Program-made: the position numbers and the translations under genes
In this document: positions 16,741 to 63,747 of the stretch, piece by piece
Numbering within the stretch: the stretch's first letter is position 1
Layout of the letters: each line of letters starts with the position of its first letter
Notes under the pieces: generated by a model
The model's input: only the letters and a program-made list of their open reading frames with translations
What the model was told of the DNA's origin: nothing
Database searches by the model: none
NCBI GenBank assembly: GCA_902782445.1
Contig: CACZNC010000001.1
Location: 9,939 to 73,938, forward strand
From: an uncultured Ruminococcus sp.
Lineage (GTDB): Bacteria > Bacillota > Clostridia > Oscillospirales > CAG-272
Length of the DNA: 64,000 nucleotides
Reading direction: 5' to 3'

Positions 16741-16875
16741 AAAAAAGGCACACGTTCCCCGAGGAATCGTATGCCCAGACGGTCGGCTTGTCCGCTTTGC
16801 GCGGCGGCTTTCTGCTTCACGCGGTCGATTCCGCGGAACAGCCCGGAGGCGGTCCCATCCGTCAGTCACAGAAAG
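16741..16875 (-). promoter_or_regulatory. ZTP (pfl-motif) riboswitch with terminator expression platform
   Basis: Minus-strand RNA has GUGACUGACGG...CCGGG... linker ...CCGUCUGGGCA. The terminator stem GGCAUACG/CGUGUGCC plus U6 (16741-16775) overlaps the 3' pseudoknot strand. Sits upstream of purE. Confidence 0.7.
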
Positions 16876-16887
16876 CTGATTTTCTTT

Positions 16888-40835: not shown

Positions 40836-40852
40836 GAATTCGTTCGGCACAA

Positions 40853-40924
40853 GCTAGTGTGGCTCAGTGGTAGAGCAGCTGATTCGTAATCAGCAGGTCG
40901 AGGGTTCAATCCCCTCCACTAGCT
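40853..40924 (+). tRNA. tRNA-Thr (anticodon CGU)
   Basis: Hand-folded cloverleaf: acceptor GCTAGTG/CACTAGC, D arm GCTC/GAGC, anticodon arm GCTGA-TTCGTAA-TCAGC, T arm GAGGG-TTCAATC-CCCTC. No encoded CCA. Confidence 0.9.
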
Positions 40925-41260
40925 TTTTTCTTTTTTTGCGGGCCTCCGCTTTTTCATTCTCCCGCCTTTCTCATGACGGGGTCATACTATTCTCAGTTGA
41001 AAAAAGCTGACTGGATGGGTTTCGATCGCAAGATGCAGAAGGCGAACGACCTTGTCGTGAGCTCGCGTACAATAACTCTGATATGGTTGGATAGCTTTAT
41101 TGGTGTGGCAAGGTTTCAACTGCACGTTATTGGTGTGACCTAGTCCTGACCGTTTCAGAAGTTCTTGCCGCTGAACTTGTTCAGCAGGGCTTCATTTCAA
41201 GAAGCCGCGTTTTCCCCACTAGAATGAAAGTACCACCAAGACGAAAAGAGGATCTTTATC

Positions 41261-53424: not shown

Positions 53425-54802
53425 TCAACAAAGAAATGTTGAGATTATTCTATTATATTTTCTTCGCCGTGTATTCGTTAATTAGAGAGACCACACTATG
53501 CATTACTGATTCGTTCTCTTTAATCTTTTTTATACACTCTATTGCATAACTGATGGCTTGTTTTTGTGAATTGTTAAGTGTAAATTGAGATGGCATCGCT
53601 TGCAAAATGGCTAAACAATCAACGGTGTCTTTAACATCTTCTGCTAAATATTCATGAGGAACATCAATGCCATCAAGTGAATAATCTTTATACTTCCTTG
53701 GTGTTGCATTGCTGATTTTAAAGATCATATCATTGCAATCGCCTTCATAGTATGTGAAAATCCTCTTTGCAAACACTCTCTTTTCGATGCTTTCTTTGAT
53801 GTTCTTCCCCAACAGATAATTTAAATATGATTTATGGCTTTTTGATTTAATAATAGGGTATAGGGAATCAAAGAAATCCGATAGATGTTTTATTGACTTC
53901 CAAGTTCGGATATATCTTCCATTAAGATTGTATTCATTAATCGGCTTATTTCTTCCTAGATTGCCTCTTTCTAATGCAGTCCCATGAAGAATATTCTCAG
54001 ATTTTGTAACCCATTCCAAATTATCTATACATGGATTTGATCGATCTTCGTCGATATGATTAACAAGCGGTTTGTCATCAGGATTTGGAATAAACTGTTT
54101 GGCAACCATAATATGAGCTAATCGGAAGATAGTTCTTTTTTCAATGCGTAAAATATGCGCACGATATCCATTGTGCAAAGTGCCATTGATTATTCTATGA
54201 GTGAGCTTATTGCGAATTTGCCCCATTTTGTTGATTTCATATTGACTGTCCGGAAACTCTATTAGCGGATAAAAGATAAAATACTCTTTGGGTTTCTGGA
54301 TGCCTGTCTCTTCAAAATATTTTTTTGCGGCAAACTCTCCATTGTCCCACGATATATTGTCCAAGGAACAATTATCAGCATTTCCATCAAGATGTATTAA
54401 ATCAGTATAAGAATGAGAACCATCATTGAGCATAAAGGTTTCAGCGACTAATTCGTCAATGCGTCTGGATTTCTTTTCTCCATTCTTATCTTCTAAAGTT
54501 CTAAATACTGCACCATTAGCACCATTTTTTTGTAGGCTTAATATTCTCCCTGTTTTTATACTTCGCAATTGACCATAACGACTAATTTCATATTCTGGGT
54601 ATTCTGCTAACTGGACCCAATCGCTTTTTGCACTCTTCAATTCATCACACTCTTTTCATAATTTGTTGTATTGGGCAGTCATCAAAAACGCCCTTTTGCT
54701 TAGAATGTCAAAAGAAATCTTATGCCTTTCAGAACATATAGCACTTACTTTCTATGACTCATTTTTAGAATCCTTGATCCTATAATAATCCTCTGCATTT
54801 AC
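53425..54802. mobile_element. AT-rich horizontally acquired cassette carrying only an HNH endonuclease gene
   Basis: Hand counts of 60-nt lines give 17/60 and 19/60 G+C here, versus 40/60 in purL. Sharp composition switch at about 53425 and about 54830. Confidence 0.45.
53453..54640 (-). CDS. HNH homing-endonuclease-like protein with two NUMOD4+HNH_3 modules and an IENR/NUMOD1-like tail
   Basis: WVQLAEYPEYEISRYGQLRS + HLDGNADNCSLDNISW. Then FPDSQYEINKMGQIRN + VNHIDEDRSNPCIDNLEWVTKSEN. TTG start. Confidence 0.8.
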   Translation of the reverse strand: MKSAKSDWVQLAEYPEYEISRYGQLRSIKTGRILSLQKNGANGAVFRTLEDKNGEKKSRRIDELVAETFMLNDGSHSYTDLIHLDGNADNCSLDNISWDNGEFAAKKYFEETGIQKPKEYFIFYPLIEFPDSQYEINKMGQIRNKLTHRIINGTLHNGYRAHILRIEKRTIFRLAHIMVAKQFIPNPDDKPLVNHIDEDRSNPCIDNLEWVTKSENILHGTALERGNLGRNKPINEYNLNGRYIRTWKSIKHLSDFFDSLYPIIKSKSHKSYLNYLLGKNIKESIEKRVFAKRIFTYYEGDCNDMIFKISNATPRKYKDYSLDGIDVPHEYLAEDVKDTVDCLAILQAMPSQFTLNNSQKQAISYAIECIKKIKENESVMHSVVSLINEYTAKKI

Positions 54803-54828: not shown

Positions 54829-56508
54829 TTACACATATTTGCTCAAGCAACATACCGTCTCAACGTGTGATCCATCGTCCAAACTCAAAATCATATCCTC
54901 CTTGATGATCGGGAGCCTGAAAGTGATGGATTTCAGCCACTGACCGTTCGGCTGTCTTTCCTTGTACACCTCGATTTCGGAGATCAGGGCTTCCATCATC
55001 TTTCGCTTTTCGAGATCGGACATCTTGGAGTACAGCTTATCAAAGTAAATCAGGATCTTGTAGATGTTGTCTCCGGTGAGCTTCTCCGCCTCGATCGACA
55101 TCTTCTTCGCTCTGGCTGTGATAAGCTCGGATTCGGTGTCGTCTATCTTATCATACATCTTATACAGCCGTTCGTCAAGATCTGTTTTTCTCCTGGTGTA
55201 ATGTTTGTCGTCAGGATCGAGCGAATCGATCTCGTCGAGCAGCCTTGCCTTCAGGGAATACTGCTGACGAAGTTGCTTCTCGAGGGCGGTTATTTCTTCT
55301 TCAATCGCGGCGGTATCCACCTTCATATTGATCTTTTCCTGCATCAGAGCGGCGAACTCCGGGTTGCTCACCAGTTTCATGAGAATTTCCGTCACCGCGT
55401 CGTTCAGCACCTCTTCATTGATCTGCTTTTTGTAATCGCATTTGTGTCCGCGTGTCAGATCGCGGTGCTTGCAGCCATAGTAGAAGAAGTCCTTGTATTT
55501 CGAGCCGTCCGGTTTGTATTTCGTGCATTTGTTGCCGTACATCCCGGCGCCGCATACGGGACAGCGGACGATCCCGGACAGCAGATGAACGTTTTCGTCC
55601 TTTCCCCGGTTCACGTGCTCGTATTTCTCAGCCATGACACGGAGCTTTACCTGCGCGGCATCCCAAACCTCGGGTGATACGATAGGTTCATGACGTCCGT
55701 CGACAAGGAGATAATCGTCCTGCTCGACCAGGTGGTATTCGTTGCGGGTCCCGTACACCTTTTCCGTCTTCCTTCTGCCGTATGCGATTTTTCCGCAGTA
55801 CACCGGATTGTTCAGAATCCGGCGGATCAGAGCGGCGTTAAACAGCGGATTTTTGCCGTTCTGCCGTTCGATCTTCCGAATTCCATGGTTTTCGAGATAT
55901 TTGGCAATTCCGTTCGCTCCCGAATCCGTGTGCACATACTGATCGAATATCATGCGGATCGCTTCGGCCTCCTCTTCGTTGACGATCAGTTCGCCGTTCT
56001 CCAGCTTGTAGCCGTAAGGAGCGAAACCGCCATTCCATTTGCCTTCCCGGGCTTTCTGGATCCGTCCTTCCATCGTCTGAACCCGGATGTTCTCGCGTTC
56101 GATCTCCGCTACGGCGGAAAGCACGGAGATCATCAGCTTCCCGGCGTCTTTTGAGGAATCGATCCCGTCCTCAACACAGATGAGATTGACGCCGAAATCC
56201 TGCATGGTCTGCAGAGTGGAGAGCACATCTGCCGCGTTTCTTCCGAAACGGGACAGCTTGAACACGAGGACGAAGGACACGTCGTCTTTCCCGGTTTTGA
56301 TGTCCTCCATCATACGGTTGAACTCCATCCGTCCTTCGATGGATTTGCCGGATTTTCCCGCGTCCTCGTATTCGCCGACGATTTCAAAACCATTGAATTC
56401 AGCATAGGCTTTCATTCTGGTTTTCTGTGCATCCAGAGAGTACCCGTCGACCTGCATTGTCGTGGATACTCTCGTATAGATGTACACTTTCTGTTTTGTG
56501 TTGTTCAT
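54829..56508 (-). CDS. Large serine recombinase
   Basis: N-terminal resolvase domain YIYTRVSTTMQ..SLDAQ, recombinase domain, zinc-ribbon CPVCG..C, coiled coil. 559 aa. Confidence 0.93.
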   Translation of the reverse strand: MNNTKQKVYIYTRVSTTMQVDGYSLDAQKTRMKAYAEFNGFEIVGEYEDAGKSGKSIEGRMEFNRMMEDIKTGKDDVSFVLVFKLSRFGRNAADVLSTLQTMQDFGVNLICVEDGIDSSKDAGKLMISVLSAVAEIERENIRVQTMEGRIQKAREGKWNGGFAPYGYKLENGELIVNEEEAEAIRMIFDQYVHTDSGANGIAKYLENHGIRKIERQNGKNPLFNAALIRRILNNPVYCGKIAYGRRKTEKVYGTRNEYHLVEQDDYLLVDGRHEPIVSPEVWDAAQVKLRVMAEKYEHVNRGKDENVHLLSGIVRCPVCGAGMYGNKCTKYKPDGSKYKDFFYYGCKHRDLTRGHKCDYKKQINEEVLNDAVTEILMKLVSNPEFAALMQEKINMKVDTAAIEEEITALEKQLRQQYSLKARLLDEIDSLDPDDKHYTRRKTDLDERLYKMYDKIDDTESELITARAKKMSIEAEKLTGDNIYKILIYFDKLYSKMSDLEKRKMMEALISEIEVYKERQPNGQWLKSITFRLPIIKEDMILSLDDGSHVETVCCLSKYV

Positions 56509-56604
56509 AACTCATTCCCTGATCATACCTTTGACGCAGCGCTGCTTTCCTCTGCTATCCTCGTTCAAAAATCGGGTTTGGACACCGATTACACGAATAT
56601 TGTA

Positions 56605-56844
56605 TCATAAAATTTCGGCATTTTCAAGTGTTTTTTCAGAATGTTTGGTTTTTTTCTTACAGTCGATACGTTCTTCTTCGCATCCTTTCTTAAACCTCGG
56701 CGGATCGGGAAGACTGTCAAGGTCGATCTCCCCGGCATACTTTTCGATCATTTCAGCCAGAAAAGCCGCAAATCCGCTCCACACATCCTCATTCCACTGC
56801 ACCGTGCCGTCGTTCCTCCTTTCCTCTGTTTTTGCCCTGAGCAT
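56605..56844 (-). CDS. Small hypothetical protein downstream of mob
   Basis: 79-aa ORF overlapping the mob 3' end by 56 nt. An internal Met at 56751 would remove the overlap. No recognised motif. Confidence 0.35.
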   Translation of the reverse strand: MLRAKTEERRNDGTVQWNEDVWSGFAAFLAEMIEKYAGEIDLDSLPDPPRFKKGCEEERIDCKKKTKHSEKTLENAEIL

Positions 56845-57769
56845 ACGCCTCCAGGATCTCCCTCGGGATCCTCTCCACCGTCTTCAAAAGCTCGGCGTAC
56901 TCCTGCTCCCGCTTGAACCGCTCCATCTTCTCGGCTATCCGCTCCCGCCCGGCATCCTCCGCTTTGGCGAGCCTGCCTTTCAGCTCTTCGTTCTCTTCGG
57001 TCAGGGCTTTGTTTTTCTCGACCGCCTTGTGAAGTTTTGTCTTGAACTTCTCCACCCCCGGGATATACTCGTCCAGAAGCTCGGCGATCTCCGCGGCGCG
57101 GGATTTGGCGTTGAAGGCGTTCGTCCAGGACAGCAGCTCCATGAGCCGATCCCTCTGGGCGTTCAGGTGTACAGCCTCCTTATACAGCCGCGGCGGAAGG
57201 TGCTCCCGTCCGGTCTGGCTGGCGCTCTCTCCCCGTTCCAGCTCCGGGTACTTCTTCACCATGTGCTTCCAGAACTCGTCCTGCCACCAGATCAGCTTCT
57301 TCTTGTTCCCGACAATATCCTTTGCTGACAAGCGTCCGTCCTCAGTCAGCGGTACGAAGCAGAGGTGCATGTGGGGCGTCTTCTCATCCATGTGCACCAC
57401 CGCGGAGATGATCGTCTTCTCACTCTGATGGGCTTTGACGAAATCCAGCGCATAGGCGAAGTATTCCTTGACCTCTGCTTTCTTCTTTCCCTTGAAGAAC
57501 GCCGGGCTTGCGGTGACGAGGGCTTCGACCACCCTCACACTGTCCGATCGGGTTCTGCATCCGGCCTCCGCGATCTGTCTTTCAGCCTCAGCCCGGTATT
57601 TCCGATCCGGCGTCACAAGGTGGAAGTTGTACTGACTCCGGCTGGTGTCCACATCGGGATTGCTGGCATACTGCTCCTTCGTGCGTTCGTTGTGTGCTTC
57701 GATGTGTCCGATCTCCGGTCCCTTGTATTTGGCAAACCGGAGGATTCCGTACTGTGCCTTTCCCATCAA
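56789..57769 (-). CDS. mob: MobV-family relaxase (plasmid recombination enzyme, Mob_Pre)
   Basis: N-terminus ILRFAKYKG..IGHIEAHNER and the HMHLCFVP histidine motif typical of Mob_Pre relaxases. Confidence 0.9.
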   Translation of the reverse strand: MMGKAQYGILRFAKYKGPEIGHIEAHNERTKEQYASNPDVDTSRSQYNFHLVTPDRKYRAEAERQIAEAGCRTRSDSVRVVEALVTASPAFFKGKKKAEVKEYFAYALDFVKAHQSEKTIISAVVHMDEKTPHMHLCFVPLTEDGRLSAKDIVGNKKKLIWWQDEFWKHMVKKYPELERGESASQTGREHLPPRLYKEAVHLNAQRDRLMELLSWTNAFNAKSRAAEIAELLDEYIPGVEKFKTKLHKAVEKNKALTEENEELKGRLAKAEDAGRERIAEKMERFKREQEYAELLKTVERIPREILEAYAQGKNRGKEERRHGAVE

Positions 57770-58023
57770 TCCCCCTCCTTCTTCTGCCAGACGATCCTGT
57801 AACCCAGAATGTCGGCCAGCTCCACGACCTCATGATACCGGATGGAATCCCGGCTCAATTTGGCAGAGAAATTCGATACGCTATCACTCCAGCCGTATTT
57901 TTCAGCCAGAGTCGCCACAAGCTCCTGCATCGTGAGCCCTTCGCGGATGATGTGCGCCTTGATTTCGCTCCGTGCGCCGGGATGGATTTTTGGACGGATG
58001 GTTGGATGGTTTGTGTTTTTCAT
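57766..58023 (-). CDS. Small DNA-binding-like accessory protein upstream of mob
   Basis: Start MKNTNHPTIRPK with AGGAGG RBS. 85 aa. ATGA-type overlap with the mob start. Confidence 0.55.
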   Translation of the reverse strand: MKNTNHPTIRPKIHPGARSEIKAHIIREGLTMQELVATLAEKYGWSDSVSNFSAKLSRDSIRYHEVVELADILGYRIVWQKKEGD

Positions 58024-58120
58024 GAATGGTTCCTCCTGTGATTTTCGATATAATGAAACGGTTTCTCTGTATAGCGGTGAAAACCTTGTATTTACTGTGT
58101 TCCGGCGTGAACTCCAAAAG

Positions 58121-58184
58121 ATCCATCCCAAGCATCCCATATATACCGCGCCGATTCGGGACGTTTGGGATGGATGGGATGGAT
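58121..58184. repeat. Inverted and tandem GGGATGGAT repeats (candidate oriT/operator)
   Basis: ATCCATCCCA-AGCATCCCA ... 27 nt ... TGGGATGGAT-GGGATGGAT. Intergenic, upstream of the accessory-mob operon. Confidence 0.45.
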
Positions 58185-58200
58185 AAATCAAAGTCCAGCG

Positions 58201-59493
58201 TCATAACATTGTAGGCGATATCAGACCTTCGATCCCCCAGAATCCGTTGACCCGCTTGCCTTTGCGGTTCATAATGTGATTGTCGTGTTCCAACCGGAAC
58301 TCTGCCGCGTGCTTATTGAGTGTTGAACTCACGGTCCGGGCGGACAAGGGCTTCATGGCGTTGTCCTCACACCATTGCTTGTAAATCGCATAGAGATCGG
58401 CGGAGGGGATCGTGCTGTCCGCTTTGAGCCGGATATATCCCTCCGAACGGAGAAAGGGGATCACATTGTCAGCATCTTGTCGGGCTTCCTCCCGGTTGGC
58501 CTTTGTCTGCTCGCTCTCGGTGAACCGGAACCCGTTCTCCGTCAGCCTCTTTAGTCCCGTGAGACACCAGAGGAAGATTCCCTCGGCCTCGGCGCAGAGC
58601 TTGTCCGCGAGGAAGGGATCGTCCTCCCGGCCTTCCGGCTTTTTCTTCACCGACAGGATCAACTGCCGACGGAAGAACCCTTCGGAATGGTCATACAACG
58701 CCTGCAAGTCTCCGTTTGAGAACGCGAGGAACCGGACATACATCTCGCCTTGATAGCTCTGCTCCCCCTTCTTTTCGAGATCCATCGGCATTTCCGCCGT
58801 AATGAGGGATTTGAGATAGTGCGTCGATTTCAGGGCTTCCATCTGCATATCGTCGTCCACCATGCAGAGCTCATGCTCCAGATCGGCCCGGGCAAACGGA
58901 CTGTGCTCCACTTTGGCGATACTGCCGTTTTTCAGATTGTCACCGAGCAGAGCCCGCATCACGATCCCGATCCGCGACTTGCCCTCGCCGCCGCTGCCCT
59001 TGAGAAGAAGCATCGTCTGGCCCCGGGTTGTCGGGATCAGGCAGTAGCCCATATACTCCTGAAGCGTCATCGCATCCTCATATTCCAGAAGGTCCTCAAT
59101 AAACAGTATCCATTTCGCGGGCAGGTCTGCGCCGGGATTGTACGCCACCGGCAGGCGGTTCCGGCAGAACTCCTTGTCCGTCGTGAATCTCATGCCGTCG
59201 AGAAATAGTGTTCCATTGGCCACATGGAGCCGGTCCGTCTGGACAGGCAGATCCGGGCTGAACGCTTCAAGCCGCAGGGTGTCCAGCAGGTTCTTCACCT
59301 TCTTCGCGGCTCCGGTACTGACATAGGGTTTCAGCAAATCGTACATCTCTTTTCCGATCCGGGCTTCGTCCGTGATCCGCCCCTCCGTCGTGAAAAAGCT
59401 GCCGTTCACACAGATCATGGGGTGATCCGCCAGATAGTCATGACAGAAGAGCGTTTCGAACAGGTGCTTTCCGTCATACCAGACCGGGAGCAT
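58201..59493 (-). CDS. P4/D5-family primase-helicase (phage/plasmid primase C-terminal NTPase)
   Basis: Walker A GSGGEGKS, Walker B-like MVDD. The ORF extends to a TTG at 59592 (56-nt overlap with the upstream gene). ATG 59493 with a GAGGAG RBS is preferred. Confidence 0.85.
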   Translation of the reverse strand: MLPVWYDGKHLFETLFCHDYLADHPMICVNGSFFTTEGRITDEARIGKEMYDLLKPYVSTGAAKKVKNLLDTLRLEAFSPDLPVQTDRLHVANGTLFLDGMRFTTDKEFCRNRLPVAYNPGADLPAKWILFIEDLLEYEDAMTLQEYMGYCLIPTTRGQTMLLLKGSGGEGKSRIGIVMRALLGDNLKNGSIAKVEHSPFARADLEHELCMVDDDMQMEALKSTHYLKSLITAEMPMDLEKKGEQSYQGEMYVRFLAFSNGDLQALYDHSEGFFRRQLILSVKKKPEGREDDPFLADKLCAEAEGIFLWCLTGLKRLTENGFRFTESEQTKANREEARQDADNVIPFLRSEGYIRLKADSTIPSADLYAIYKQWCEDNAMKPLSARTVSSTLNKHAAEFRLEHDNHIMNRKGKRVNGFWGIEGLISPTML

Positions 59494-59536
59494 CTCGTCC
59501 ACGATCTCCTCTTCGGTTTCTTCCTCCGTCCCCGGA

Positions 59537-60136
59537 TTATCTGCACGCAATGCTTTCTTCTTTTTCACGAATGCCCTCCAAATATTGTTCAAGCTCCCCG
59601 ATCTTTCCTTCCTCCTTCATGCTGTTCACAAGCTCACGCTTCGTCTTCGTGTCCGCGGCGATCAGAAGATCCACCATATACGTCACCGGCTCCATCATCC
59701 GGCAGGCTTCGAGAAACCGGGGATGAGGAGTTTCATCCTCGGAGTTCGGCGCATATCGTACCTTCCACCCTCGCAGCAGTTCCAGAAAGTCGGTAAGTAC
59801 CCTGAAACAGCGACGTTCCTCATCGAGGGTATCCTTGTACGTCCGAAGGCGTTCCATCACAGAAACGGGGTAATTACCCCCGATTCCGAAGTCTTCCGTG
59901 AGTCTCCGCGCCGCCTCCCCCGGCGAGAGCCCCGTCAGCTTTGCCGTGAGGGTAATCACATCCCCGCTTGCACCGCATCCGAAGCAGAAGTAGTAATCCT
60001 CATTCAGCTTCATGCTCGGGTGCCGGTCGTCGTGGAAGGGACACCGGGCCATCCCTTTGCGGTCGAAATCCAGTCCGTACCGCTCCGCCGCCTGCTTAAT
60101 CGTGACGGCGGATTTCACTTTTTCATAGATCGTCAT
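59537..60136 (-). CDS. CHC2 zinc-finger (primase-type) protein
   Basis: CPFHDDRHPSMKLNEDYYFCFGCGASGDVI. Confidence 0.85.
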   Translation of the reverse strand: MTIYEKVKSAVTIKQAAERYGLDFDRKGMARCPFHDDRHPSMKLNEDYYFCFGCGASGDVITLTAKLTGLSPGEAARRLTEDFGIGGNYPVSVMERLRTYKDTLDEERRCFRVLTDFLELLRGWKVRYAPNSEDETPHPRFLEACRMMEPVTYMVDLLIAADTKTKRELVNSMKEEGKIGELEQYLEGIREKEESIACR

Positions 60137-60247
60137 GCGATCCTCCTTTCCGACGATTTTTCACCGTCTATATACACTTTACGGAATCCATCCGCCCGAA
60201 AAGGAGATTTTGGCAGAAGTGCAGAAAAGAAAAAATCCTTCCCCGGA

Positions 60248-60267
60248 AAATTGCAGAAATGCAATTT
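60248..60267. promoter_or_regulatory. Palindromic operator candidate
   Basis: AAATTGCA-GAAA-TGCAATTT perfect 8-bp arms in the divergent control region. Confidence 0.4.
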
Positions 60268-60347
60268 CAGGGCGGGAGCACTGGATTCAACTCAGAAATC
60301 AAGATTAACAGTCGTGATAAATCGACGCAAAATGACAAGAAAATCTC

Positions 60348-60376
60348 TTGACAGAGAAATTTGTTCATGATATAAT
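60348..60376 (+). promoter_or_regulatory. Sigma-A type promoter of the XRE-sigma operon
   Basis: TTGACA-17 nt-TATAAT. Confidence 0.6.
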
Positions 60377-60413
60377 AATATTGAAAGTCAAAGAAGGAGG
60401 CTATTTGTCGAGA

Positions 60414-61241
60414 ATGAATGAACGAAACTATCTTCCGGGCACGATCAGGGAACGCTTACAGGAGCTGATGAAGAGAAGGCATATCAAGCAGGCGGATCTG
60501 GCAGAAAAGATCGGGGTGGACAACGCGACCCTCAGCCGCTTCATCAACGGCAAGACGGACAAGATCAGCCCCGACGCCATCGTCCGCATGGCGAAGGAAT
60601 TTGAAGTCTCCACGGACTTCCTGCTCGGGGTGGTGAACGATCCGGCACGGAAGAATTACGACATCGGGGAGATCGGCTTGACCGTGGACGCCGCGCGGAA
60701 CCTGTACACAGGAAAGGTCAACGCCGACGTGGTGAACCGCCTGCTGACGAACGACCGCTTCGCCGATACTGCGGATCAGATTGCCCTGTACCTCGAAGAC
60801 CGCCTGGCCCGGGGTGTGGCAGCACAGAACGAGATTTACGGACTGGCCTGCAATCAGTTGAAAAAAATCCCGGACGCAAAAAAAGATGCGGACGAAATCC
60901 ACAGCTGGATCTCAAATCCGCATCGGGACGAGCTGAACGGGATTACAAGTTCCTTTGAAGCCTCACTCCGGGAAATCAAGAAGGAATACGGTTCGGACAA
61001 TCTGAAAGAGACGCAGGTGATGAGCCGGGAGATCACGCGGGGAATGTACGCCGAGGTCATGAAAGGGCGGGACATCCGCGATCCAAAGCTGACGCCGGAG
61101 GAATATGTGGATCGGGTGTGCGTGTATCTCACAACGAGTCAAGGCATATCGGAAACCTTGCTGAAACCGTTCCGATGGGTGTTGATCTTCCTTTTGAAGC
61201 TCTTCGGCGGAAAGGCGGCTCATGGACAAATCAACGACTAA
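60414..61241 (+). CDS. XRE-family HTH transcriptional regulator with long C-terminal domain
   Basis: Start MNERNY with AAGGAGG RBS. HTH IKQADLAEKIGVDNATLSRFINGKT. Confidence 0.85.
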   Translation: MNERNYLPGTIRERLQELMKRRHIKQADLAEKIGVDNATLSRFINGKTDKISPDAIVRMAKEFEVSTDFLLGVVNDPARKNYDIGEIGLTVDAARNLYTGKVNADVVNRLLTNDRFADTADQIALYLEDRLARGVAAQNEIYGLACNQLKKIPDAKKDADEIHSWISNPHRDELNGITSSFEASLREIKKEYGSDNLKETQVMSREITRGMYAEVMKGRDIRDPKLTPEEYVDRVCVYLTTSQGISETLLKPFRWVLIFLLKLFGGKAAHGQIND

Positions 61242-61884
61242 CGAAGAGCTCTGTCTCGCAGCTCAGAACGGCGACGAAGAAGCCGGCAACCTCCTGATTG
61301 AGCAGAACGCCGGGTTCATCGTCATGACCGTCCGGTCCGTGCTCGGTCTGTTTGGAATCAAGCCCTGGGAAATCGGGCTGACCTATGACGACCTGCTTGA
61401 AGAAGGGCGGATCGGGATGTGGAAGTCCATAGCGAAGTACGACCCGGAGAGCGGGGCGAACTTCCTGACCTATGCGAAGCCGGCAATCCGACACGCGGTG
61501 ATCGATCTCATCCGCCAGCAGCGGCAGGACATGGAAGCGCTGTCCGACCGGATCACCGTCGAAGCACTGGAAACCCGGTACAGCGAGGGGCAGCGGTACA
61601 CGGTCTGGGACGATCTCGCCGAAATGCCGGACATAGTCGGCGATCCGTTTCATCAGTCGCCGGAGCAGATCTACATGGAAAAGGAACTGATCGAACGCCT
61701 GTACCGCGCACTGATCGACGTGGGTGAGCGGAGCGGCACCTATCTATGCTACCGCTTCGGGTTCGACGACGGGGACGAGCATTCCGTCCGGGAAACCGCG
61801 GAGCATTTCACGATTACCGAAACCATCGCAAAATCCGTGGAAAGAACCGCGCTGGCTGAGATGCGTCGGGAAATGGCGGGATAA
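61222..61884 (+). CDS. Sigma-70 family RNA polymerase sigma factor (MGE-borne)
   Basis: Region 2 (DDLLEEGRIGMWKSIAKYDP..FLTYAKPAIRHAVID) and region 4 HTH (SVRETAEHFTITETIAKSVERTAL). Confidence 0.85.
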   Translation: MDKSTTNEELCLAAQNGDEEAGNLLIEQNAGFIVMTVRSVLGLFGIKPWEIGLTYDDLLEEGRIGMWKSIAKYDPESGANFLTYAKPAIRHAVIDLIRQQRQDMEALSDRITVEALETRYSEGQRYTVWDDLAEMPDIVGDPFHQSPEQIYMEKELIERLYRALIDVGERSGTYLCYRFGFDDGDEHSVRETAEHFTITETIAKSVERTALAEMRREMAG

Positions 61885-61921
61885 GGGGAACGGGGGAACG
61901 TCGCCGCGGCGGGAGTATATA

Positions 61922-62296
61922 CCTTTCGATCCCCCGGCGTCGTGACTCATGCCTCCGTCATGAGTCCGAGCCTACACACACCCGGAGGGGAATCACAGGC
62001 TTTCACGCCCACGATTCCCCTCCGTTCTGCTGTCATCGGAAAGACTCTGCGTCTCTCGCGCATCCCCTTTCCGCTCCCAGCGGGATCCAAAGGTATAACA
62101 CACTAGACTTTCACGGAAAGTCGTGTGCCAAAAGGAACGCTGTCCCCTTTGGATTCCTCTGCCACGAAACCTCCGGTTTCTTTGGATTCTTCCGGCCAAC
62201 AGAGAGCCTCCCGCCCCCTATTGGATGACCCCGGGCAAAGGGGAGCGCCCCTTTGAAATCCCCCGCCTAAGAATCCGGTGAGAATCTTTGGAGTCC
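61922..62296 (+). repeat. Iteron-like YCTTTGGADTCY repeats interleaved with perfect hairpins (non-coding)
   Basis: Direct copies at 62146, 62179, 62250 and 62285. Inverted copy at 62084-62094. Degenerate copy at 61922. Hairpins at 61944-61966, 61983-62024 (12 bp), 62097-62130, 62236-62255. Confidence 0.45.
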
Positions 62297-62472
62297 GCCG
62301 TCAAAATGGCATACGTATGCACGCAGATCTATCTAACAGAGATTGCAGTGATCCAGCCACGTACATGTTCATGGCGGCGTTGTGGGCGATTATCTCACGG
62401 CAGCTTGCAGGGGAAGAGGTTCGGGGTGGGGGAAGATACCAGATTGGCGATAATCCGCGAAGAAGTCGTTGA

Positions 62473-63747
62473 TCAGTTGTTCCCCCAAAACGCCCGCAGG
62501 TATTTCTCGTCGAGGATCTTGTTTTCGGCGCAGTATTCGATCACGTGTTCCACATAGTTCTTCAGCGTTTTTTCGTCAAGCCCGATTGCTGCCAGTTCTT
62601 CGGGCGTCATCCTCACGATCTTCTCCCATGTGTAAATTGCTCCGTCGAACATGTACGCTGTCGGGTTTATCAGCTTTTCCTTCATATCGTTTTCATCCAG
62701 GAACAGTGCGGCGATGTACTCGTCCGTCAGGATCATGTCGTCCCCCAGTTTCTTCCGCTCCTCGTTGAGCGTGGTCAACTGCTCCCGGGTAATGCCCAGT
62801 TCCCGGACGGTCTGCACCATCGTCGGCAGGGCGTTCTGTTCGTCGATTGTTTTTTTCAGGAATATGTTGTTGACCCAGTCGTTCAGCCGTTCTTCTTCGA
62901 TGATTGGGGTTTCCCCGTGGTACAGCTTTTCCAGATAGGCGATGTTGTACGTGATGTCCTGATATTCCCTGTTGAACGCGGATATTCCTCCGACCGCAGC
63001 GCTCTGCTCATAGAAGAGCGTTTCCAGTCTGCGCAGACTGGCGTAGCTGTCGGCTCCCCCTGCGACGTCAAGCCCGCTCATGGTCATCCGCAGCGTGGGA
63101 TCGATCAGGCGCGAGACAATGGCGGCCACCTCCGAGCGGCGGACTTTCGATTCCGGGAAGAAGCTTCCGGCTTCGTCCATTCCCGTCAGCACGCCTGCTC
63201 GGTAGAGACGGTACACATTCTCGGTGTTCTGCAAGAAAGGCAGGTCTGGGATGGCGTTGTCCACAACCGCGTTGATCTCTGCTAGTTCATTTACCGGCAA
63301 GGCGCGGGATAAAAGAGATGCACACTCGATCCGGAAGGCAGGCTGTGTCACATCTCCGGGTTCACCGGGCTGGATTCCATTATCCATGCAGTACTTGACG
63401 TACCCATAAAACCACGGCTTGTCCGCCTGATTGTCATATCCGTCAGCAGCCTCCGCAGAACCGGTGTGATAGATCGCGTGGATCCGCGCGGTGACGGTAT
63501 AGACCTCGGCGAGCGTGATGTCTGACTCCGGTGCGAACCGGTTCCCGCCCACGCCGATCATCAGGCCGGTTTTCGAGATACTCTTTACGTACGGCGCGAA
63601 CCAGTCCCCAGATGAAACGTCCGTGAAGGTCAGCGCTTGCTTATCGCTCATGAAGTGTGCAAGACTGCCGTCCGTCGCAAAGGCGGCAAAGGGCAGGATC
63701 AAAACGGACAAAAGAAATGCCGTCAGTAAAGAAATAATGCGTTTCAT
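62473..63747 (-). CDS. Secreted SLH-domain protein
   Basis: Signal peptide MKRIISLLTAFLLSVLILPFAAFA. SLH-like FTDVSSGDWFAPYV...GNRFAPESDITLAEV. Confidence 0.75.
   Translation of the reverse strand: MKRIISLLTAFLLSVLILPFAAFATDGSLAHFMSDKQALTFTDVSSGDWFAPYVKSISKTGLMIGVGGNRFAPESDITLAEVYTVTARIHAIYHTGSAEAADGYDNQADKPWFYGYVKYCMDNGIQPGEPGDVTQPAFRIECASLLSRALPVNELAEINAVVDNAIPDLPFLQNTENVYRLYRAGVLTGMDEAGSFFPESKVRRSEVAAIVSRLIDPTLRMTMSGLDVAGGADSYASLRRLETLFYEQSAAVGGISAFNREYQDITYNIAYLEKLYHGETPIIEEERLNDWVNNIFLKKTIDEQNALPTMVQTVRELGITREQLTTLNEERKKLGDDMILTDEYIAALFLDENDMKEKLINPTAYMFDGAIYTWEKIVRMTPEELAAIGLDEKTLKNYVEHVIEYCAENKILDEKYLRAFWGNN

Follow-up and report, generated by a model that had tools for sequence, protein, structure and literature searches.

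The window analysed here, a 64,000-nt stretch of contig CACZNC010000001.1 from an uncultured Ruminococcus sp., contains a non-coding region (positions 61885 to 62472) between a sigma-70-family gene and the stop codon of a gene for an S-layer-homology (SLH) protein. To the left of the region lie genes for a large serine recombinase, a Mob_Pre relaxase, a D5-type helicase (D5_N/DUF5906), a CHC2 zinc-finger protein and an XRE regulator, together with a short open reading frame (ORF; Table 1). This gene set is that of an integrative mobilizable element (IME), and the Pfam matches agree with an earlier sequence-only reading of this DNA, which had placed the region at the end of such an element. We consider it very likely that the segment from 61.92 to 62.31 kb is the origin-of-transfer (oriT) module of an IME of about 7.5 kb, which spans approximately 54.85 to 62.31 kb, and that it is not a replication origin.

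The hairpins, the palindrome and the motif copies described in the sequence-only reading were all found, either exactly where it had placed them or at most two bases off. Exact copies of the motif YCTTTGGADTCY start at 62146, 62179 and 62285. The remaining direct copy, at 62250, was also present but reads CCTTTGAAATCC, which has one mismatch to the motif. An inverted copy, placed earlier at 62084-62094, was detected at 62082-62093, and the degenerate copies near 61922 and 62065 were real: they correspond to the distal arm of a long-range stem and to the 3' arm of hairpin H3, respectively. With up to one mismatch allowed, the whole window contained six matches to YCTTTGGADTCY, five of them within 62082-62296. 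Shuffled sequences gave 4.25 matches per window, which corresponds to about 0.014 expected in 215 nt and to a Poisson P of about 5e-12; this value is optimistic, since the pattern was derived from the same copies that it counts. Furthermore, 61905-62300 folded as single-stranded DNA far better than dinucleotide shuffles, with z = -8.35 for the minus strand and z = -7.16 for the plus strand.

The ORFs of the region had no match in Pfam, and when its relatives are compared, indels have lengths not divisible by three and whole hairpin modules are present or absent. From these differences we conclude that the region is non-coding, as the earlier reading had held when it saw no credible ORF. Small ORFs do overlap the region, but a degraded coding gene is effectively refuted by the missing Pfam match and the kind of differences between relatives. 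The same holds for chance hairpins, since a covarying structure is kept in dozens of loci.

The evidence for an oriT comes from the minus strand. From 62129 to 62083 it reads GGCACACGACTTTCCGTGAAAGTCTAGTGTG/TTATACCTTTGG, a near-match to the oriT of pMV158 that is used by the relaxase MobM, GCACACACTTTATGAATATAAAGTATAGTGTG/TTATACTTTA. In the window, the minus strand reads GGCACAC GACTTTC CGT GAAAGTC TA GTGTG/TTATAC CTTTGG, and that of the pMV158 ORIT oligonucleotide is GCACAC ACTTTAT GAA TATAAAGT ATA GTGTG/TTATAC TTTA (PMC3105389). Common to both are GCACAC, ACTTT..AAAGT and TAGTGTG/TTATAC, followed by (C)TTT. MobM contacts AAGtaTAGTGTG and melts TGTG/TTATAC; in pMV158, inverted repeat 1 (IR1) is located 8 nt upstream of the G/T nick, and IR3 extends IR1 through GCAC...GTGTG with a small bulge (PMC5863519). 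IR1 plus 8 nt is the minimal target of this oriT type, and the IR3 pairing puts the nick at the 3' end of the stem. In the window, the predicted nick is 7 nt away from an IR1-like hairpin with a 7-bp stem, GACTTTC-CGT-GAAAGTC. An IR3-like extension, GGCACAC ... TA GTGTG, is also present, and its pairs were invariant in 34 to 35 of 35 aligned loci. The nick region TAGTGTG/TTATAC (minus strand, 62105 to 62093) was identical to that of pMV158 and invariant in all 35 loci, while one stem pair of the oriT hairpin was GC in 16 loci and CG in 16. In addition, the oriT core was the lowest-GC 30-nt window of the region.

The relaxase of the element matched the MobM relaxase domain (PDB 4LVI) with E = 9e-20. 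It keeps the catalytic-His motif HNER and the metal site H-x-D-E-x-x-P-H-x-H (VHMDEKTPHMH), and its gene is located on the strand predicted to be nicked, as in pMV158. Based on the oriT match, the conserved relaxase motifs and the same-strand relaxase gene, the minus strand is predicted to be nicked between its G opposite 62099 and its T opposite 62098. Judged by its sequence, the core is a further member of the pMV158/MOBV1 oriT family. The sequence-only reading had listed a true oriT among its alternatives; for the CACAC/GTGTG hairpin and its surroundings, this alternative is strongly supported by the pMV158 match and by the linkage to the relaxase described below.

We then compared the region with related loci. 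When the 588 nt were searched by blastn against plasmid and phage collections, only about 60 to 100 nt around the CACAC/GTGTG hairpin were shared, and there was no match to any plasmid single-strand origin (sso) or replication origin. Among 72,556 plasmids, the oriT block alone was detected, in four records from gut Clostridia and Lactobacillus. In a Lactobacillus amylovorus plasmid and a Pusillibacter megaplasmid, the block is located at the element end opposite the recombinase gene, and these elements carry aadE. The two loci, L001 (L. amylovorus plasmid NZ_CP104880.1, 35.4 kb) and L002 (Pusillibacter pMM59_01), have this oriT type with one hairpin module, along with aadE and ant(9). No relaxase gene was detectable in L001, so its oriT resembles an orphan site open to mobilization in trans.

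A genome scan with the single sigma protein found nothing, but a profile of sigma homologues recovered 80 genomic loci from gut Clostridia. Their gene order is recombinase, relaxase, small ORF, helicase and CHC2 protein, then XRE and sigma. In about 58 of these 80 syntenic loci, the block CAAAGGTATAACACACTAGACTTT-loop-AAA(G/A)TCGTGTGCCA was nearly invariant and was located 180-270 nt downstream of the sigma gene in constant orientation. One related locus (L078) is from F. prausnitzii.

On the plus strand, GTGTG is followed in every locus by imperfect palindromes, one to five in number, that fit the pattern CCAA-n-GGG...loop...CCC-n-TTGGA-(A/T)(A/T)CC. The motif YCTTTGGADTCY is the 3' arm of such a module plus its flank, and each motif copy has an inverted partner 3-14 nt away. 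A module in the position of the window's module 1 was present in 79 of 82 oriT-bearing loci and also in the unrelated backbones L001, L002 and L092-L094. The type of module 2 recurred in L007, L066, L072, L080-L082 and L094. Module 5 folds weakly in the window (-1.9 kcal/mol), and its equivalent in the syntenic relative L089 has a perfect 8-bp stem, CCAAAGAT..ATCTTTGG. Within one array the inner stems vary (GGGG/CCCC, GAAACC/GGTTTC, GGAAGG/CCTCC) with their complementarity kept. In the relatives, module lengths range from 19 to 38 nt and start-to-start spacings from 36 to 103 nt, with no helical phasing. Custom hairpin scanners were used for these counts; a covariance model of the single module was dropped because MAFFT mis-registered the 5' arms. 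With a conservative scanner, the module density was 5.0 per kb in the 305 nt after the oriT and 0.125 per kb elsewhere in about 1 Mb of loci, an approximately 40-fold difference. The variable number, spacing and length of the modules, together with their complementary inner stems, fit hairpins and not duplex sites for one protein.

In about 90 loci, conservation of sequence extends to the loop of the commonest module (GCGAGnAGCAT, minus strand) and to the plus-strand 3' flank AAACCC, which hints at a sequence-specific contact. In L089 (6520-6760), L118 and L167, extra GC-rich palindromes are nested in module loops, and in L089 the palindromes CCCGAGGTTCGGCGCAGCCGAACTCGTGG and GAGTTCGGTGGAACCGAACTC are found in two different modules. 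They look like hairpin-in-hairpin insertions.

The presence of the array was linked to the relaxase type. Where the relaxase was at least 50% identical to that of the window, 29 of 30 loci had the oriT block (the exception is a truncated locus), with 1.43 modules per locus. Where it was only 27-30% identical, none of nine loci had the block, with 0.11 modules per locus. The D5-type helicase is present in all nine of the latter (52-53% identity), yet only one of them has a module, a single one, and the other eight lack modules. Conversely, the oriT block with a module was also found in backbones that have no D5-type helicase, namely L001, L002 and the virome contigs L092-L094. Thus, the array follows the relaxase and not the helicase, and we conclude that it belongs to the mobilization module and not to a replication module.

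This linkage bears directly on the explanation preferred in the sequence-only reading, in which the motif copies are regularly spaced iterons of an origin for a P4-type primase-helicase. The YCTTTGGADTCY copies would then be duplex sites at which the CHC2 protein and the D5-type helicase replicate the excised circle. Indeed, the motif is clustered in the region, the element encodes both proteins, and no other iteron-like array or obvious origin was found in the intergenic segments 60100-60400 and 56480-56830. However, loci that keep the helicase together with a distant relaxase lack the oriT core in nine of nine cases and a module in eight, whereas helicase-less backbones carry both. Moreover, every copy belongs to an inverted repeat, the other arm of which is complementary to it. 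The spacing is also not regular: it is 33, 71 and 35 nt in the window, and both spacing and module number vary among the relatives as described above. The region has no AT-rich unwinding element, its GC content being 58% and that of its lowest 50-nt window, at the nick site, still 42%. Finally, the mismatch bias described below points to a single-stranded fold and not to duplex recognition. An iteron-type origin is therefore highly improbable. The alignment of related elements that had been suggested as a check showed modules kept as covarying hairpins, but at irregular spacing.

The modules showed a strand bias. Individual modules fold better as the minus strand, for example module 3 with -5.7 kcal/mol on the minus and -1.1 kcal/mol on the plus strand, and the minus strand is the one predicted to be nicked and transferred. 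Using a strand-neutral detection in which G.T and A.C mismatches were treated alike, we found 46 of 80 unique module hairpins to have only minus-strand G.T mismatches and 6 to have only plus-strand G.T mismatches. When collapsed by module type, the numbers were 21 and 5, respectively (p = 0.0025). In 21 of 35 loci, the minus strand of the oriT hairpin contains a T.G pair, the plus-strand counterpart of which is a C.A mismatch. The raw fold-energy difference, with the minus strand more stable in 50 of 51 loci, was rejected as evidence on its own, since shuffled controls showed it to be mostly compositional.

A structured non-coding RNA, another alternative of the earlier reading, could in principle give similar patterns, either as the 3' untranslated region (UTR) of the XRE-sigma transcript on the plus strand or as a minus-strand antisense RNA originating at the right end of the element. 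The strong fold z-scores and the covariation would suit an RNA, in which G.U pairs are as acceptable as G.T pairs in DNA, and in some relatives the entire oriT module is bounded by the sigma stop codon and a terminator hairpin and is thus probably transcribed on the plus strand. Positive support was not obtained, however. The covariance-model scan, run against Rfam 15, matched no family at its gathering score, and the best hits at permissive thresholds reached 11-16 bits compared to thresholds of 37-80. The bias toward the minus strand argues against a role as plus-strand 3' UTR, and promoter-like sites were not found on that minus strand. In addition, the best-conserved part is accounted for base by base as a DNA nick site with a relaxase-binding hairpin, and its presence follows the relaxase type. 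We regard an RNA as very unlikely.

Another explanation is that the modules are duplex sites for a relaxosome accessory protein, for XRE or for the serine recombinase. In many oriTs, such as those of MOBP and MOBQ systems, accessory-protein repeats adjoin the nick, and the outer CCAA/TTGG, the 3' flank (A)AACCC and the loop of the commonest module are conserved in sequence. But the distance between the half-sites varies with module length, the inner stems differ within one array and yet remain complementary, and the G.T bias is strand specific. Furthermore, modules occur with recombinases that are only 26% identical (L011, L012) and in backbones that have no detectable XRE homologue (L001, L092-L094). 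We therefore consider such protein-binding sites unlikely as the explanation of the modules.

On the other side of the nick, the oriT module comprises a leading domain of three hairpins. The minus-strand sequence TTATACCTTTGGATCC (62097-62083), just 3' of the predicted nick, pairs with 61932-61918, approximately 165 nt away and close after the sigma stop codon, and the resulting stem encloses the hairpins H1, H2 and H3. In 35 loci, RNAalifold detected compensatory changes at four pairs of this stem, e.g., GC:16/UA:15, GC:20/CG:7/UA:5 and CG:26/GC:8. The helix equivalent to H2 had changes on both sides at five of five scored pairs. In H3, GGAAAG/CTTTCC is conserved throughout the family and the inner helix covaries. 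For the whole structure, consisting of the oriT hairpin, the long-range stem and two inner helices, 97.1% of the cells in the 35 loci were paired, compared to 83.4% after column shuffling and 29-49% with slid partners. The covariation score of 0.340 (0.128 when shuffled) was reached by none of 500 shuffles. A function as duplex DNA cannot explain complementarity across 165 nt.

Of the loci that combine a kept helicase with a distant relaxase, most lack the leading domain, and we conclude that it, too, belongs to the oriT module. One such locus, L042 (6627-6800; 28% relaxase identity), is a deletion derivative with a remnant of the domain: it retains the distal arm and the modules, and of the oriT hairpin the right half, but lacks the nick region. 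In L059 and L073, which have a distant relaxase, the sigma stop codon is directly followed by a terminator-like hairpin, AAAACCGCTGCAA...TTGCAGCGGTTTT, whereas in L021 and L057, which have a close relaxase, this hairpin is located beyond the oriT unit. The oriT unit of about 400 nt thus behaves as a cassette inserted between sigma and its terminator.

The virome contigs MT837643, MT837045 and MT837704 have a variant oriT with one module and no homologues of the element proteins. They were considered as circular forms of the element and rejected, since there was also no terminal redundancy. The exact 19-mer GTATAACACACTAGACTTT was present in 22 viral-classed contigs (IMG/VR loci L176-L197).

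Table 1. Positions in the window of the genes, junctions and structures of the element, its predicted oriT module and the flanks
Feature	Position	Strand	Basis or remark
Probable left junction core CATAC	54851-54855	.	recombinase 3'-end comparison across loci
Large serine recombinase	54829-56508	-	Pfam
Mob_Pre relaxase, MOBV1-type, cognate enzyme	56789-57769	-	Pfam PF01076, E = 4.4e-50
141-aa ORF	57766-58191	-	gene list left of the region
D5_N/DUF5906 (D5-type) helicase	58201-59592	-	Pfam
CHC2 zinc-finger protein	59537-60136	-	Pfam
XRE regulator	60348-61241	+	Pfam
Sigma-70-family gene	61222-61884	+	
Long-range stem, distal arm, plus strand TATACCTTTCGATCC	61918-61932	-	both single-strand folds; RNAalifold, 35 loci
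Hairpin H1, 8-bp stem, GACTCATG / CATGAGTC	61944-61966	-	kept in close relatives L085/L086
Hairpin H2, 12-bp stem, CGGAGGGGAATC / GATTCCCCTCCG	61983-62024	-	equivalent helix changed on both sides, 35 loci
Hairpin H3, GCTGTCATCGGAAAG ... CTTTCCGCTCCCAGC, inner sub-hairpin	62029-62081	-	alignments
Long-range stem, proximal arm, plus strand GGATCCAAAGGTATA	62083-62097	-	includes the inverted motif copy of the earlier reading
oriT core	62093-62129	-	match to pMV158 ORIT 42-mer (PMC3105389) and MobM contact/melting sites (PMC5863519)
GACTTTC-ACG-GAAAGTC inside CACAC/GTGTG (plus-strand reading)	62101-62127		
Module 1, CCAAAAGGAACGCTGTCCCCTTTGGA	62128-62153	-	3' arm = motif copy 62146; abuts IR3 arm
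Module 2, CCACGAAACCTCCGGTTTCTTTGGA	62162-62186	-	3' arm = motif copy 62179
Module 3, CCAACAGAGAGCC..CCCCCTATTGGA	62196-62225	-	commonest type of the family; not counted in the earlier reading
Module 4, GCAAAGGGG-AGCG-CCCCTTTGAA	62235-62257	-	= perfect hairpin 62236-62255 + motif copy 62250
8-bp stem hairpin	62236-62255		
Module 5, degenerate, CCTAAGAATCCGGTGAGAATCTTTGGA	62266-62292	-	3' arm = motif copy 62285
Probable right end (attR)	62297-62320	.	L089 homology end + CATAC repeat
Palindrome GCATACGTATGC	62309-62320		
Probable host DNA, outside the feature	62315-62472	.	shared by no relative; from the junction position
S-layer-homology (SLH) protein gene	62473-63747	-	

To define the ends of the element, the recombinase 3' ends of about 70 metagenome loci and of a 98%-identical copy with a different flank were compared. 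They are conserved up to GAGACGGT and then diverge, which places the crossover inside the last codons of the recombinase ORF and the left junction at about 54851-54856, where the plus strand reads ...AACATAC followed across the junction by CGTCTC. The final ~8 codons of the recombinase and its stop codon are thus supplied by the flanking DNA, so that they vary among insertions (window 54829-54856; loci L095-L174). The left flanks show a loose consensus, in reverse complement ATG(C/T)(C/T)TGCT or TTGATGTCAAGG. At the other end, homology to L089 stops near 62296 and CATAC at 62310-62314 repeats the CATAC of the left junction; the palindrome GCATACGTATGC therefore probably straddles the right junction. 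For this palindrome, but not for the rest of the region, the recombinase accessory sites considered in the sequence-only reading are probably correct. In the excised circle, the predicted junction would join ...AAAATGGCATAC (62314) to CGTCTCAACG (54856).

Look-ups of the exact sigma and SLH proteins found both on the source contig only. SLH homologues were also used as a source of an empty site, and the intergenic DNA of an 80% relative could not be aligned. Homology breakpoints among the metagenome loci fell inside cargo genes and were uninformative for the right junction. The tRNA-Thr (CGT) gene at 40852-40925 (plus strand) was rejected as the integration site, because no repeat of its 3' end was found near the element or at 62 kb. 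On the left, an ORF at 53453-54640 (minus strand) with NUMOD4 and HNH_3 domains is homing-endonuclease-like and has a low GC content (37-41%); given the predicted position of the left junction, it would lie just outside the element. With a flanking GC content of 34% on the left and 53% on the right, the insertion may have taken place beside or within another foreign segment. Elsewhere in the window, a ZMP/ZTP riboswitch aptamer was detected at 16766-16879 (minus strand; 49.7 bits, gathering score 39).

Several observations weigh against the interpretation as an oriT module or against parts of it. The oriT is 4.3 kb away from the relaxase gene (62.1 kb versus 56.8-57.8 kb), while that of pMV158 is immediately upstream of its relaxase gene and overlaps the promoter, and the distance between IR1 and the nick is 7 nt and not 8. 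After shuffling controls, the strand z-scores differ only modestly (-8.35 versus -7.16), and the G.T bias would be expected equally of an RNA from the minus strand and of single-stranded DNA. An empty site or a circular junction was sought and none was recovered, and the evidence for the right junction is weak. The compared loci are related, so counts such as 29 of 30 versus none of nine overstate the number of independent events. Modules 2-5 and the leading domain had no BLAST-detectable similarity to plasmid single-strand origins.

In the mechanism that we propose, the relaxase would nick at G/T and lead the minus strand, 5' end first, into the recipient via the mating pore of a helper element. 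The three-hairpin domain would enter first, whereas the modules and the oriT hairpin would enter last and would be used for re-joining. The hairpins would act within the single-stranded transferred DNA. The first module, which is near-universal and abuts the IR3 arm, is probably part of the signal for relaxase recognition or termination, in nicking and in re-joining at the end of transfer. XRE-sigma (60348-61884, plus strand) is the sole plus-strand operon of the element; it lies within the region predicted to be transferred first and is transcribed toward the nick, with the transferred strand serving as template. In F-type plasmids, leading-region genes that are expressed early have this orientation. 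A consensus promoter of the operon, TTGACA-17-TATAAT, is located at 60348-60376.

The extra modules and the leading domain may have a role like that of an sso and help the incoming strand become duplex, which we favor for these hairpins while regarding it as less likely than not. The leading domain has the size and structure expected of an sso, namely, a conserved, strand-specific fold of about 150-250 nt. Alternatively, the extra hairpins might protect or stabilize the strand end or bind accessory proteins. In ICEBs1, an sso of ~200 bp with three stem-loops (sso1) is located just downstream of the oriT, and its authors argued that an sso so placed postpones the conversion of the attachment site to duplex until after re-circularization (PMC4595007). 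In the window, a primer within 61918-62097 would similarly cross the re-joined nick and the module array before the attachment site, a geometry as in ICEBs1.

Tentatively, and with limited confidence, we extend this to the unit as a whole. The ~400 nt, comprising the leading domain, the MOBV1 nick site and the trailing modules, could be a portable cassette for processing the transferred strand that moves with the relaxase. Its hairpins would then be an undescribed type of single-strand origin or promoter that primes only after re-circularization and thereby times duplex formation at the attachment site, with the module number as a means of tuning. In a search of open-access text, we found no description of the variable, strand-biased module array, of the covarying long-range stem or of the cassette behavior of the whole oriT unit.

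Each of two collection scans recovered at least 80 gut-Clostridia loci with elements of this syntenic family, and the aminoglycoside resistance genes aadE and ant(9) are present in some relatives. With the oriT, the nick position and the transferred strand known, such elements and trans-mobilizable orphan oriTs can be annotated from sequence alone. The strand-biased, covarying hairpins offer a way to ask how single-stranded arrivals become duplex and are protected before integration. According to a 2017 review, replication of excised elements of this kind had not been studied. For annotation in general, short repeats beside a primase-helicase gene are not necessarily iterons; checks for inverted partners and for co-occurrence separate the cases.

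Among known systems, the origins of phage P4 and of SaPIs, which use D5/P4-alpha-type helicase-primases, resemble the element in helicase class and in having a cluster of short repeats in non-coding DNA. In contrast to them, the repeats in the window are hairpin arms of non-conserved number and spacing, are not accompanied by an AT-rich region and do not co-occur with the helicase. The MOBV-type IMEs of Firmicutes (Tn4451, Tn6215, IMESag-rpsI and the Faecalibacterium MOBV1 superfamily) are likewise small, have a recombinase, a MOBV relaxase and their own oriT, and depend on the pore of a helper (PMC5704250, PMC12084326). MOBV-type mobilizable elements with serine recombinases were already known, namely, Tn4451, Tn6215 and the Faecalibacterium elements; what distinguishes the element in the window is its gene set of serine recombinase, relaxase, D5-type helicase, CHC2 protein, XRE and sigma. 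An oriT sequence or flanking hairpins of this family are not described in these two reports.

The closest likeness is to the oriT of pMV158 and MobM (MOBV1). GCACAC, the ACTTT..AAAGT hairpin, TAGTGTG/TTATAC and the CTTT repeat agree nearly base for base, the relaxase coding strand is nicked in pMV158 and predicted to be nicked here, and the catalytic His and metal-binding motifs are the same. Unlike in pMV158, the oriT of the window is at the far end of an integrated element and not at the mob promoter, its hairpin is one nucleotide closer to the nick, and the sequence 3' of the nick pairs ~165 nt away, whereas in pMV158 it forms the local IR2. The present family also has one to five further modules, which are absent from the descriptions of the pMV158 oriT in PMC3105389 and PMC5863519.

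Finally, the leading domain can be compared to single-strand origins (ssoA, ssoT, ssoU and ssoW of plasmids; sso1 of ICEBs1, which was assayed using pHP13; PMC4595007). Unlike them, it has no detectable sequence similarity in the plasmid collection beyond the oriT block, and it follows the relaxase type and not the primase-helicase of the element. In line with them, it is strand specific and strongly folded, with three stem-loops in about 180-200 nt, and like ICEBs1 sso1, it is located just downstream of the predicted nick on the transferred strand.

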